Shown piece after piece: positions 9,245-12,953 of a stretch of DNA of 64,000 nucleotides. The notes under the pieces were generated by a model. That model did no database searches. It saw only the letters and a program-made list of their open reading frames with translations, and was not told where the DNA came from. Origin of the DNA: Escherichia coli (GTDB lineage: Bacteria > Pseudomonadota > Gammaproteobacteria > Enterobacterales > Enterobacteriaceae). The translations under genes and the position numbers were made by a program. How positions within the stretch are numbered: the stretch's first letter is position 1; each line of letters begins with the position of its first letter. The DNA lies in NCBI RefSeq assembly GCF_001677475.2, contig NZ_CP015229.1, one strand, 5' to 3'.

Positions 9245-9377
9245 AAAGACCTCATAAGCGAATTTTTTACGCTCCAGGACAAACACCCATTCACAGCCAA
9301 TACCGACTGACTCGATCCCTTTAGAAGGTACAGGATAATGCAAATCACTTGTTAGCTACGTTTCAAAGATATACATT

Positions 9378-9394
9378 ATTGCTCTAATTAATTT
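9378..9394 (+). promoter_or_regulatory. P1 C1-repressor operator-like site upstream of ssb
   Basis: ATTGCTCTAATTAATTT matches the recalled C1 operator consensus ATTGCTCTAATAAATTT at 16 of 17 positions. Confidence 0.5.
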
Positions 9395-9413
9395 ATTTTA
9401 TTAGGTAAGATAA

Positions 9414-10046
9414 GTGGCACAACGCGGTGTAAACAAAGTCATCCTGATTGGTACCCTGGGGCAAGACCCGGAGATCAGGTATATACCAAATGGCGGCGCG
9501 GTCGGAAGACTCAGCATCGCAACGAATGAATCATGGCGCGACAAGCAAACGGACCAACAGAAAGAGCAAACAGAATGGCATAAAGTCGTTTTGTTCGGAA
9601 AACTTGCTGAAATTGCGAGTGAGTATTTACGAAAAGGTTCTCAGGTCTACATCGAAGGGAAACTTAAAACCCGTAAGTGGACAGATGACGCCGGTGTAGA
9701 ACGTTACACGACGGAAATTATCGTCAGCCAGGGCGGCACCATGCAAATGATCGGCGCTCGCCGTGACGATTCACAGTCCTCAAATGGCTGGGGGCAATCA
9801 AACCAACCTCAAAACCACCAGCAATACAGTGGTGGCGGTAAACCTCAGAGCAACGCCAATAACGAACCTCCAATGGACTTTGACGACGATATTCAAAAAC
9901 GACTGAAAGAAAAGCGGTGGTCCAGACGCCGACAAAAGCACGAACTCGCTAAAAAACGCCAAAGCTGGCAATGGCACGCGCTTTTCACGAAAAGAACACC
10001 CCGAGGCATTGCTTTCGCTGGTGGGAAAACATTCCTCCCCACCTGA
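9414..10046 (+). CDS. ssb: single-stranded DNA-binding protein with non-canonical C-terminus (basic 50-aa extension after DFDDDI instead of terminal PF)
   Basis: Track ORF; OB-fold region closely resembles E. coli/P1 SSB (VNKVILIG...TEWH...MDFDDDI); reading continues [14 protein letters not shown]... to a stop at 10046. Confidence 0.85.
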
Positions 10047-10083
10047 AGGCGCAATACATCAAATTTTAAGCAGAGAAAAGACT

Positions 10084-10737
10084 ATGAATAAAATGGCAAC
10101 GAAAGAGCTTTTTAAGTTCCTTCCCAAATACAAAGCTCACAAAATCGTTAGTGCATCGAAAATCAAAGATATCGAGATTATCTCATTGATTGATAATACC
10201 CCTGCTTGTGGCTATATCACATTAATGGACCCCCAAGGCGTAACGGTTCGTGTTGATGCAGCGTTTTTGCAAAAACACCGACCAGATACTGGCGGCTATC
10301 TGCTCGGTTATGAGGACGGTTATCTGTCCTATTCACCAGAAAAAACATTTGAAGAAGGCTTTAGTCGGACTAACGACTTCTTCGAAAATGAGGTATCGCT
10401 TAGCATTGAAGGTCACAATGGGGTGACATTCATTACAGCCAGGGACGTAACTATTGCTGCCGGTGGCATCATTACCACACAAGAAGAAATCGACCTTGAA
10501 GCAGCCGACTTCTCTGACGCGCTAATGTGGTTGAAGGAAGGCAAGAAAGTTGCCCGACGCGAGTGGAAAGGCGAAAAGCAATTCTGCTGGTTAGTTCTCG
10601 CTGGAAGCGTCAATTTACACGGCATTCACGTTCCTTATGGTGACCATTTTGTATTGAAAGATGCACAAAATATGGACAGCGTTTGGTTGCCGTCTGTGGA
10701 TGATTTACTGGCATGTGACTGGTTTGTAGTGGAGTGA
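10084..10737 (+). CDS. two-domain protein: unknown N-terminal domain plus C-terminal DUF2829-like (Tad2-family-like) domain
   Basis: Track ORF 10009-10737 trimmed to the ATG in frame; C-terminal motif ALMWLKEGKKVARREWKG ... DWFVVE resembles DUF2829. Confidence 0.55.
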   Translation: MNKMATKELFKFLPKYKAHKIVSASKIKDIEIISLIDNTPACGYITLMDPQGVTVRVDAAFLQKHRPDTGGYLLGYEDGYLSYSPEKTFEEGFSRTNDFFENEVSLSIEGHNGVTFITARDVTIAAGGIITTQEEIDLEAADFSDALMWLKEGKKVARREWKGEKQFCWLVLAGSVNLHGIHVPYGDHFVLKDAQNMDSVWLPSVDDLLACDWFVVE

Positions 10738-10743
10738 TTTAAC

Positions 10744-11526
10744 GTGGAAAATACTAAAGCAATTCAATACCGCCTGCGTAATGGTCAGAGTGTCGAAGTG
10801 ACCATCAATAATGATGGTGTGCCTGGCGAAAAGGTTTCGATCTCTGATCTGGCTATCGAAAAAACCATCATGTGCCACCTTGGCTTTACTGAAGAAGTGA
10901 GCAAAAAGCATGGTGTAGCAATCTGGAGCGCAATGGATACTGGTATGCGCAGATTCATTACTGCTCGTACCCCAGGGATGACCATGATGGACCTCATGCA
11001 GATTGCGCCGCTGTTTGAATGTGAGCCTTTAGATGTATTCAGCAATCCAGCTATCTGCCAGCAGTTATATGGTGAGATGAAACTCGCGGTTACCCCCATT
11101 GTGCTGCATGAAGGATCGCTTGCTGGCGTGTGGAAAGTGGAGCGTATTTCAAGCTACATGCCTTTCCATGTCAACGGCGTAATCACTGGTGAAAATCAAC
11201 CTGTTTCCGTTATAAAGTCAGACCTCAAGCGCGCAATTCTTGAAGCAAGTTGTCGAGTTGTCGGCCTGGGCAAACAGTCTTATGTTTCCTTCCCGGCTGG
11301 CCCTGAAGGCCCGGCAGAAATTCTGATTATGGATGCCGATCTGCTATGGCAAATACAGTTTCTGATTGGCAAAAGCATCATCCGCGCTGAAGAACTCGAT
11401 CAGTACATTACCTGCACGATGACGGATGAAGTCAAAAGTGTGGCTATAGCCAATGCCCGGAACCTATGTCGTGCTGCATTAACAGAACTGCAAGAAAACA
11501 CCACGGAAGAGGTGGAAAGTGATTAA
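10744..11526 (+). CDS. hypothetical protein, 260 aa
   Basis: Track ORF; GTG start behind a GGAG RBS; tightly packed with neighbours. Confidence 0.5.
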   Translation: MENTKAIQYRLRNGQSVEVTINNDGVPGEKVSISDLAIEKTIMCHLGFTEEVSKKHGVAIWSAMDTGMRRFITARTPGMTMMDLMQIAPLFECEPLDVFSNPAICQQLYGEMKLAVTPIVLHEGSLAGVWKVERISSYMPFHVNGVITGENQPVSVIKSDLKRAILEASCRVVGLGKQSYVSFPAGPEGPAEILIMDADLLWQIQFLIGKSIIRAEELDQYITCTMTDEVKSVAIANARNLCRAALTELQENTTEEVESD

Positions 11527-12613
11527 TCGTATACAGAATGAATCTGCCTGGTTAGCACTGATAGAACGGTATAAAGACAATTGGGAACTGGCAGCAAAAG
11601 AGTTGCTTGATATTGAGTTAACACCTCATCAAGCAAAAATTATTAACGCGATAAAGAACACCGGAGCCAAAGTCACTGCCACCACACCACATGGTATTGG
11701 GGAAACCTCTATTGTGGCAGTGATTAGCATCCTGCAAACAATACTGTATTCGTGTTCCCGTACAGTGGTTGTTTCTCCTGCGATTAACGATAGTCGAAAA
11801 ACAATAATTGACTATATGTTCCGTTATTGGGAGCGAGTTACCCAAAAACACCCTTTTCTTGGCAATTATTTCAGAATACACCCTGACAAAGGGTTGGTGC
11901 ATATCAGTGAAACATGGGGATGCGTCTATATAACCTATTGTCTGAATAACGAAGAGTCTCTGGCTGGTTTTACTGGACCGCACGATCTTTTCATCGTTAT
12001 TAACTCGGCGGAAATCAGCGATCGCGCTCATGCAGTGATAACTGGCAATTTAACCAATTATGACTCGCGCCTGCTGTTGCTGTCGAAACCATCGGAACGC
12101 GAGAAAGGGTACTTTTATGATTCGCATCACCGGTTGGCCCATAGTAAAAACAATCCTGCTGGTTTTTTCACGGCGATAACTCTAAACACAGAGGATTCAC
12201 CTCTCGTTTCTGAAGCATATCTTGAATTCAAAGCCAAAGAGTTTGGTGGACGCAATAGCGATGAATATCGCCGATTGATCTTGGGGAAATTCCCCGGGAT
12301 TCGGGAGTTGATGGAAAAGTCATCTGTTCCCCGTAATATGCACTTCACAATGACTGACGGTAGTAAATGGGTAGTGCCTACGATCGTGATCGCCAAACAC
12401 CATGCGAAACATCACGCTCAAAAACACAACTCCAGCACATTAGACTGGCTGAAGGCCTATACAATACCGTTATTCTCGGCAAACCATAACGCTATAACTG
12501 AATGGGCTAAACAAATCCCCTGGCAGGATGTGGCTGAAGAGGCGTTTGTCGAAAAACCACCAAGAGATTTGCACGAGCACTGTTGGCTGACATCAGAAAA
12601 AAGCTTCTCGTGA
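11519..12613 (+). CDS. hypothetical protein with terminase-large-subunit-ATPase-like region and non-canonical P-loop (GIGETS)
   Basis: Track ORF; local pattern LTPHQ ... TTPHGIGETS ... DLFIVINSAE ... ITGN parallels the Q-motif/Walker A/Walker B/motif III spacing of large terminases, but the Walker A lysine is replaced by Glu. Confidence 0.45.
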   Translation: MINRIQNESAWLALIERYKDNWELAAKELLDIELTPHQAKIINAIKNTGAKVTATTPHGIGETSIVAVISILQTILYSCSRTVVVSPAINDSRKTIIDYMFRYWERVTQKHPFLGNYFRIHPDKGLVHISETWGCVYITYCLNNEESLAGFTGPHDLFIVINSAEISDRAHAVITGNLTNYDSRLLLLSKPSEREKGYFYDSHHRLAHSKNNPAGFFTAITLNTEDSPLVSEAYLEFKAKEFGGRNSDEYRRLILGKFPGIRELMEKSSVPRNMHFTMTDGSKWVVPTIVIAKHHAKHHAQKHNSSTLDWLKAYTIPLFSANHNAITEWAKQIPWQDVAEEAFVEKPPRDLHEHCWLTSEKSFS

Positions 12614-12616
12614 GGT

Positions 12617-12643
12617 AAAAATCCCGCCGATTGGCGGGATTTC
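12617..12643. terminator. bidirectional intrinsic terminator between the accessory module and the dar operon end
   Basis: Hairpin ATCCCGCC-GATT-GGCGGGAT with flanking A and T runs. Confidence 0.6.
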
Positions 12644-12644
12644 T

Positions 12645-12953
12645 TCAATATACGATCTGGTCTACATGATCACCAAAATCATCGTCGTCGTCCTCATCGC
12701 CACCATCTACTGCTGGCCAATCAACAAACCAGCCAGCGTAAAGATGCAGCGTTCGGAGAACATCACTTGCGGGAGCATCAAGGGTGTTAACGAATCCCAT
12801 ATAGCTATTGGGATTTGCTCCAGCTATGGCTTCAGCGATCATGTCCTCGGTAATGTCACCGGAGATAATGCTTAAACGCCCGGAAACTTCTTCATTATCA
12901 TCAAATTCGATAATGGCATCTCCACCTAATGGCGCTGCGATTTTAATCTGCAT
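12645..12953 (-). CDS. small highly acidic protein (C-terminal DGGDEDDDDDFGDHVDQIVY), last gene of the dar operon
   Basis: Track ORF; overlaps the ddrB-like stop by 11 nt; function unknown. Confidence 0.5.
   Translation of the reverse strand: MQIKIAAPLGGDAIIEFDDNEEVSGRLSIISGDITEDMIAEAIAGANPNSYMGFVNTLDAPASDVLRTLHLYAGWFVDWPAVDGGDEDDDDDFGDHVDQIVY

Follow-up and report, generated by a model that had tools for sequence, protein, structure and literature searches.

Sponge proteins are a main route by which phages counter signalling immunity, be it Thoeris, the cyclic oligonucleotide-based antiphage signalling system (CBASS) or Pycsar. The characterised Tad2 proteins, SPO1 Tad2 (8SME/8SMF), ModTad2 (9EIB/8V3E) and HgmTad2/AcrIIA7 (8KBI), are stand-alone proteins of 80-105 amino acids (aa). 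In the solved structures, helix alpha1 forms the tetramer interface and the ligand pockets lie at the interfaces between protomers. What they bind varies from homolog to homolog, the ligands being ADP-ribose (ADPR) derivatives such as 3'cADPR/2'cADPR, N7-cADPR and His-ADPR, the cyclic dinucleotides cGG/cGAMP, or cUMP/cCMP. Sponge modules also occur joined in one polypeptide, as in the Acb4-Tad2 protein of Pasteurella phage Pm86 and in Tad2-Sequestin and Sequestin-Acb4 proteins, and fused Tad2 proteins, Acb4-Tad2 among them, are documented as functional (bioRxiv 10.1101/2025.07.12.664507). Here we analyse a gene located on a 64,000-nucleotide stretch of Escherichia coli DNA (contig NZ_CP015229.1 of assembly GCF_001677475.2; hereafter the window), which encodes a protein combining a Tad2-like domain with a predicted OB-fold domain related to Dec, the decoration protein of phage L.

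This OB-Tad2 protein shares with the characterised Tad2 proteins the profile, the fold and the W...W-x-P-S-x-x-D signature over its C-terminal 79 aa. It departs from them in its length of 217 aa and its extra N-terminal domain, the Tad2 module forming only the C-terminal third, in a lysine at the position equivalent to N26 of SPO1 Tad2, and in a beta2-beta5 insert that is the shortest among the P1-like alleles. Like the published fusions, it joins a Tad2 module to another module in a single polypeptide, but its partner is a Dec-like OB domain of putative function instead of Acb4 or Sequestin. This partner could not surface in the Pfam-based fusion search of 10.1101/2025.07.12.664507, because it is not in Pfam.

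The explanation we favour, with moderate confidence, is that of an early two-module counter-defence protein, in which oligomers of the Tad2 domain would soak up a nucleotide-derived immune signal and the OB domain would act as a second anti-signalling element. That the protein is an anti-defence sponge of some kind is probable. By analogy with the solved Tad2 proteins, the Tad2 module would assemble into a tetramer via helix alpha1, and the pockets between its subunits would bind a small immune signal of nucleotide origin and so take it out of circulation. This signal could be one of the ADPR derivatives of TIR/Thoeris systems or a cyclic (di)nucleotide of CBASS or Pycsar, and its sequestration would keep the host effector from being switched on. 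The OB module would be a second, autonomous anti-signalling module binding a conserved ligand or target, which would make the protein a two-pronged inhibitor.

Domain architecture of the OB-Tad2 protein

The gene is a complete open reading frame (ORF), whose ATG is the one used by its RefSeq homologs, and its product matches phrog_872 from end to end (residues 1-217, E=1.7e-47). An AlphaFold2 model of the full-length protein, built on 40 homologs, comprises a confident N-terminal domain (predicted local distance difference test, pLDDT, ~90 for residues ~11-98), a linker with values below 50 (residues 99-138) and a C-terminal domain with values of 73-90. The preliminary description of this gene, drawn from the sequence alone, had taken the N-terminal ~140 aa for a single domain; this region is in fact a folded domain of ~90 aa followed by a low-confidence linker of ~40 aa. 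The two strings that it quoted, ALMWLKEGKKVARREWKG and DWFVVE, do stand at the C-terminus of the ORF, and its assignment of that end to DUF2829/Tad2 is borne out by both of the comparisons it had proposed. The search against Pfam-A returned a full-length match to PF11195 'Tad2-like', the former DUF2829 (residues 142-216, model positions 2-73 of 73, i-E=6.1e-18), and the 24 best Foldseek matches of the model in the PDB were all Tad2 chains, with E-values down to 3e-8 and TM-scores to the target of 0.62-0.89. With phmmer, the PDB sequences retrieved were ModTad2 (9EIB/8V3E, ~1e-10), SPO1 Tad2 (8SME, 5e-6), SptTad2 and HgmTad2/AcrIIA7. The match to the Tad2 family is not due to chance, and because the assignment holds by profile and by structure, a sponge function is its natural reading. 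The Tad2 part adds a member to a known family, to which automatic annotation already assigns it; the OB-Tad2 architecture is common in the databases and uncharacterised.

In the Tad2 domain, helix alpha1 (143-151) leads into an antiparallel beta-sheet, which is interrupted after beta2 by an insert ahead of the next core strand. Helix alpha1 (DFSDALMWLKEGK) is invariant or almost so in the 40-sequence family alignment. The insert after beta2 provides the cyclic-dinucleotide pocket of HgmTad2 and an extra pocket in ModTad2. SPO1 Tad2 contacts 1''-3' glyco-cyclic ADPR (gcADPR) through W25, N26, W73 and D79, and further through I63, T65, D67, H71, S76 and T78. In the window protein W25, W73, S76 and D79 are conserved as W161, W201, S204 and D207, and N26, T65, D67, H71 and T78 correspond to K162, D193, Q195, S199 and D206.

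The N-terminal domain was also modelled separately (residues 1-101, 48 homologs), with a pLDDT of 90.8 and a predicted template-modelling score (pTM) of 0.82. In the Foldseek search with the full-length model, Dec (PDB 6E3C) is listed directly below the Tad2 matches. The profile of the domain matches the Dec sequence with E=2.6e-4, and hhalign relates the two with a probability of 95.4% (E=1.7e-8). By modelled fold and profile comparison, the domain is an OB-fold homologous to Dec. It shares its lineage with the capsid-binding domain of Dec and falls in a much larger, uncharacterised subfamily, members of which also stand alone as phage proteins of ~90 aa. No family for it was found in Pfam or NCBIfam, queried with the single sequence, with the 48-sequence alignment and with a set of members; the PHROGs that match it are only families of 'unknown function', and its structural relatives in BFVD are all uncharacterised.

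A library of 1.84 billion representative proteins, clustered at 50% identity, contains 2,742 clusters of the OB family (E<=1e-3). In the 154 best domain matches, the OB domain is N-terminal in 83, a stand-alone protein of <=115 aa in 45, C-terminal in 18 and internal in the remaining 8. Its members share a near-invariant motif, K20, H65-x-P67, G70-G71-Y72, Y76-x-D78-G79-Y80-x-S82-x-S84-P85 and F89-E90-x-G92-Y93, retained almost whole in the window protein. Many Sequestin homologs in the table of bioRxiv 10.1101/2025.07.12.664507 carry a short N-terminal module, Y-x-G-T-K...G-Y-x-V-K-Y-x-D-G-Y-x-S-W-S-P-K-x-V-F-E-x-A-Y, which resembles the conserved C-terminal half of the OB domain and may be a truncated or related version of it. 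Lockin is likewise short, beta-rich, phage-borne and fused to other sponges; as an identity for the N-terminal domain it was rejected, the two being unrelated by hhalign (probability 0.4% against LockinA-E).

The linker is beta-rich and variable, with no conservation in distant homologs. It weakly resembles the tail-fibre-repeat-like C-terminus of Dec, a trimerising three-stranded beta-helix, and the BLASTP alignment with Dec reaches into it through a TAR-x-T motif (pair E=4e-4). In the window protein this segment precedes the Tad2 domain.

The company of the OB domain in phage genomes

Sequestin was itself found by fusion-partner logic: Pfam architectures often join it to Tad2 and Acb4 (bioRxiv 10.1101/2025.07.12.664507). 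The OB family lacks a Pfam model and would for that reason have escaped notice as an anti-signalling family; the logic that revealed Sequestin could bring it to light as well. In 98 multidomain OB members, the significant Pfam partners are Tad2 (6), PF13876 (5), PF21825 (3), the Acb2/Tad1 hairpin PF24729 (1-2) and DUF1508 (1), PF13876 and PF21825 being the Acb4 and Sequestin sponges of the same Sorek-lab preprint. With the exception of DUF1508, the recognisable fusion partners of the OB domain all belong to known sponge families (Tad2, Acb4, Sequestin, Acb2/Tad1 and Lockin). The homolog tables of the preprint hold an OB-Acb4-Lockin triple fusion, in the Lockin table, together with OB-Sequestin proteins. 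A motif search found no OB-domain protein among the tested candidates of the Sorek-lab table, and only fusions among the Lockin and Sequestin homologs. The relatives of the window protein further include OB-Tad2-Sequestin triple fusions and a protein with the reversed order Tad2-OB (P0234).

Four other relatives (P0066, P0072, P0077 and P0096) carry a third small domain, placed between OB and Tad2 or in place of OB. It is marked by the motif W-R-K-x-P-V-x-I-E-A ... G-D-W-I-I-x-G-V-x-G-E-x-Y-P-C-K-P-D-I-F-x-A-T-Y-E-P and appears as an unannotated module of the same fusion network.

OB genes are found beside sponge genes in viral contigs as well. The OB profile was used to retrieve 80 loci from IMG/VR, and the ORFs in them were compared with hidden Markov models (HMMs) built from published sponge sequences. 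A known sponge domain occurs in 17 of these loci, either fused to the OB gene or <=5 kb from it, and 13 of the 16 separate sponge ORFs lie <=1.3 kb from the OB gene, mostly as same-strand neighbours (binomial p=6e-6). Tad1, Tad2 or Acb2 are present in 11 of the 80 ten-kb OB loci (14%), against a baseline of ~1% per scaffold given by the ~19,600 Tad1, Tad2 and Acb2 proteins in ~2 million phage scaffolds (Hadary et al. 2025, bioRxiv 10.1101/2025.08.24.671296). In one case, met in an exact-protein look-up whose contigs were too short to reveal much, an Acb2/Tad1-hairpin gene follows a stand-alone OB gene at a distance of 9 bp. Among cultured phages the contexts are mixed: Dewey carries the OB gene in an early-type cluster of small genes, and LASTA an OB-Sequestin fusion in the early region.

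Two IMG/VR loci, L077 (3272-4215) and L043 (230-1159), present an OB-Tad2 fusion gene directly followed by an Acb4 (PF13876-like) gene and form compact multi-sponge islands.

The N-terminal domain stands as a credible candidate for another family of anti-signalling proteins. The stronger proposal, that Dec-like OB domains constitute a large and unrecognised phage anti-signalling family, acting as sponges for a nucleotide signal or as binders of a conserved defence component, can be put forward only tentatively.

A variable cassette in P1-like phage-plasmids

The window belongs to a P1-like phage or phage-plasmid (Punavirus), its flanking DNA being 95-98% identical to P1, SJ46, Ro157c2YLVW and others. 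Locally, the genes follow the order lysozyme (on the - strand), ssb, OB-Tad2 gene, isaA homolog and an ORF of 364 aa (Table 1). Positions 9330-9420 are identical at 91 of 91 nucleotides to the stretch of P1 (NC_005856) annotated as P2ssb, Ossb and P1ssb, upstream of ssb. The promoter and operator coordinates were carried over from this annotation, the window coordinate being that in locus L002 plus 6000.

Table 1. Features of the OB-Tad2 gene and its surroundings (window coordinates)
Feature	Position	Strand	Basis or remark
ssb promoters P2ssb/P1ssb overlapping C1 repressor operator (Ossb/Op21)	9349..9411	+	P1 annotation transferred
ssb, single-stranded DNA-binding protein (SSB), upstream gene of the putative OB-Tad2 transcription unit	9414..10046	+	phrog_44, E=9e-59
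Complete ORF, OB-fold / linker / Tad2-like protein, 217 aa	10084..10737	+	ATG 10084, stop 10735-10737
N-terminal Dec-like OB-fold domain (predicted), aa 11-98	10114..10377	+	carries family motif
Variable linker, aa 99-138, beta-rich	10378..10497	+	pLDDT <50
C-terminal Tad2-like (PF11195/DUF2829) domain, aa 139-217	10498..10734	+	profile and fold
isaA homolog, downstream of OB-Tad2 gene	10744..11526	+	95% identical to P1 IsaA residues 60-320; phrog_2326, E=1.5e-149
364-aa ORF	11519..12613	+	

This promoter region is likely the transcription start of an operon containing the OB-Tad2 gene. No terminator-like site was found on the + strand within 9300-12700, hence none between ssb and the OB-Tad2 gene. 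Since the gene follows ssb downstream of a promoter and C1 operator identical to those of P1, with no intervening terminator, it is likely co-transcribed with ssb once C1 repression is lifted, and would therefore be expressed early. The isaA homolog is probably co-transcribed with it.

Reference P1 is entirely devoid of the OB-Tad2 gene, and the two sequences rejoin at the start codon. The idea that the gene could be a truncated or rearranged P1 isaA was rejected, as P1 IsaA matches the next ORF and P1 does not have the gene. The annotated P1 IsaA (320 aa; NC_005856 21569-22531, locus L002 3932-4894) matches that ORF only from residue 60. Its first ~59 residues correspond to sequence that lies downstream of ssb and is intergenic in both the window and Ro157c2YLVW, and for this reason the start annotated for P1 IsaA is probably over-extended.

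The ssb gene of the window differs from those of P1 and Ro157c2YLVW by a 15-bp deletion (CGTTTTGAATGTGTA) at 9894-9896. The stop codon is lost along with the two codons before it, for the Pro-Phe that ends the conserved DFDDDIPF tip, and the reading frame consequently runs ~50 residues further, to 210 aa versus 162. The C-terminal tip of bacterial SSBs is a docking site for partner proteins, and with its loss the SSB of the window phage may be impaired; alternatively, the deletion may be an assembly error. At the other end of the same early-looking operon, the 364-aa ORF shares its first 8 bp with the end of the isaA homolog. It gives a weak match to terminase-large-subunit ATPases (phrog_2, E=3.6e-9) and another to phrog_5902 (unknown function), and is named 'terminase large subunit' in some P1-like records, yet it is distant from the packaging genes.

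Homologs of the window protein occur in 241 PLSDB plasmids, mostly non-mobilizable, of ~90-100 kb, from E. coli, Salmonella or Shigella. The label they bear is 'DUF2829 domain-containing protein', and UniRef names one of them 'Thoeris anti-defense Tad2 family protein'. The architecture, which the preliminary description did not recognise, is by no means rare, being present in these plasmids under that label and explicitly left out by Hadary et al. 2025. Comparison of the window with other P1-like plasmids shows DNA identities of 98.7-99.4% for ssb and the isaA homolog, and of only 81-88% for the OB-Tad2 gene between them.

The alleles are mosaic, their domains recombining independently of each other. 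In CP115328 a Ro157c2-type OB domain and linker precede a window-type Tad2 (100% identical), and in NZ_CP067430 a third OB/linker type precedes a window-type Tad2 (96% identical), behind dut and in a D6-like context. The Tad2 variant of the window, with W-K-G and a short insert, thus occurs with three OB/linker types that share 47-90% aa identity. Other alleles carry the same OB domain with medium or long Tad2 inserts, or have it swapped for a dUTPase (P0070) or another small domain. Between the window-type Tad2 and that of NZ_CP067430, the proportion of synonymous differences (pS) is 0.25, the synonymous divergence (dS) 0.31 and the ratio of non-synonymous to synonymous divergence (dN/dS) 0.05. 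With 96-100% aa identity maintained despite 25% synonymous differences and so low a dN/dS, the variant is being maintained by purifying selection and is not decaying. A role in counter-defence fits a gene that is hypervariable, modular, accessory and absent from some relatives.

Candidate roles of the two modules and their meaning

Several points weigh against the two-module counter-defence explanation. Fusion and adjacency to sponges are functional linkage and not mechanism, and the neighbourhood figures come from sponge HMMs built from few seeds and from IMG/VR loci some of which are near-duplicates. The sole characterised relative of the OB domain, Dec, binds capsids and not small molecules, and the domain could be a passive oligomerisation or stabilising module. 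In Ralstonia phage GP4 (L007, 2504-2779), the portal and major head genes flank a stand-alone OB gene, which also adjoins a CsrA-like regulator gene, and such a context may leave room for a structural role in some phages. The survey of Hadary et al. 2025 (bioRxiv 10.1101/2025.08.24.671296) deliberately dropped Tad2 proteins with a 6E3C (Dec) domain; the OB-Tad2 architecture had therefore already been noticed, yet stayed outside the functional tests of that survey. On the Tad2 side, K162 replaces the phosphate contact equivalent to N26, an asparagine in >90% of 40 full-length relatives, and the beta2-beta5 insert of the window allele is the shortest of the three variants among P1-like proteins. 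Among the proteins tested by experiment, the nearest relative is Tad2_68 (Table S2 of Hadary et al.), which is stand-alone, unlike the window fusion; its identity to the window allele is only 41%, and their alignment contains a 9-residue gap. Tad2_68 resembles instead the common P1-like allele (P0022, a 453-member cluster), with which it shares 68% identity.

The alternatives can be weighed against this background. An active Tad2 domain accompanied by an OB domain serving only oligomerisation, solubility or stability, with no ligand or target of its own, is unlikely, although it would suit the frequent use of OB-folds as scaffolds, the variable linker, the reversible order of the two domains and a dN/dS far higher in the OB part (0.4-0.5) than in the Tad2 part. 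Against it, ~30% of the top OB matches are stand-alone proteins of ~80-115 aa, and because the domain occurs in this form it would have an autonomous role. The near-invariance of K20, H65, Y72, Y76, D78, Y80, S82, S84 and E90 across phages of unrelated hosts is also atypical for a mere scaffold. Homology to Dec raises the improbable alternative of capsid decoration, in which the OB domain, with a short trimeric beta-helix, would bind a P1-type capsid and display or tether Tad2, or else would mask capsid features sensed by TIR or CD-NTase sensors. The continuation of the Dec alignment into the linker, the position of the GP4 homolog and the names 'capsid decoration protein' or 'Dec protein' given to some homologs, transferred from Dec, would agree with it. 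Dec, however, is made late as a structural protein, forms trimers and binds capsids, whereas the window gene stands downstream of ssb under a C1-operated promoter, outside any late structural operon, and reference P1 forms virions without it. Moreover, the residues of Dec capsid-binding site 1, K30 and Y49, align to E31 and R56, variable columns within the most variable hairpin among P1-like alleles, and this hairpin varies among plasmids whose ssb and isaA-like flanks are nearly identical. The Y-x-D-G-Y-x-S-x-S-P part of the OB family motif is absent from Dec, and a sponge bound to the outside of a capsid would not reach the interior of the next host.

Two further readings concern the Tad2 domain. 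Its labels as an AcrIIA7-like anti-CRISPR or a transcriptional regulator, which derive from weak PDB sequence matches to AcrIIA7 (E 0.007-0.013) and from phrog_643 'transcriptional regulator' (E=3.8e-6, residues 150-217), were rejected as transferred through the DUF2829 region, the only one that phrog_643 covers, and such a function is highly improbable. AcrIIA7 is the same protein as HgmTad2, and its reported inhibition of Cas9 is not reproducible; the enterobacterial hosts of P1-like elements are not known to carry type II CRISPR systems. A shift of the window Tad2 from anti-Thoeris activity to a still undiscovered signal or a ligand outside immunity is rather doubtful, though much less remote. 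It finds arguments in N162K, the shortened insert and several altered pocket-lining residues relative to the common allele, in the strong conservation of the variant nonetheless, and in the wide differences in ligand among Tad2 homologs. The retention of W161, W201, S204 and D207 speaks against it, and a shifted specificity would still be a sponge mechanism, refining the favoured explanation without contradicting it. Because of the lysine at the N26 equivalent, the short insert, the changed pocket and the diversity of Tad2 ligands, gcADPR specificity cannot be assumed for this domain and its ligand is uncertain. The W-K-G, short-insert allele, unusual yet conserved, may recognise a signal different from the known ones.

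The P1-like phage-plasmids, which are widespread in E. coli, Salmonella and Shigella, carry the OB-Tad2 gene as a cassette that is hypervariable and shuffled by domain, suggesting that host defences continue to select on it. Hadary et al. 2025 (bioRxiv 10.1101/2025.08.24.671296) have already challenged E. coli Pycsar with P1, whose plating was restored by Tad2 homologs supplied exogenously; reference P1, devoid of the gene, offers a ready-made test chassis. Newly characterised sponges also serve to capture unknown immune signals, His-ADPR having been identified in this way with ModTad2. An activity of the OB domain, if true, would explain why functional surveys have set OB-Tad2 fusions aside, and the P1-like protein would then be a natural fusion of two inhibitors. 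With its large size and its links to five known sponge families, the OB family would, if active, be a major addition to the anti-defence repertoire of phages.

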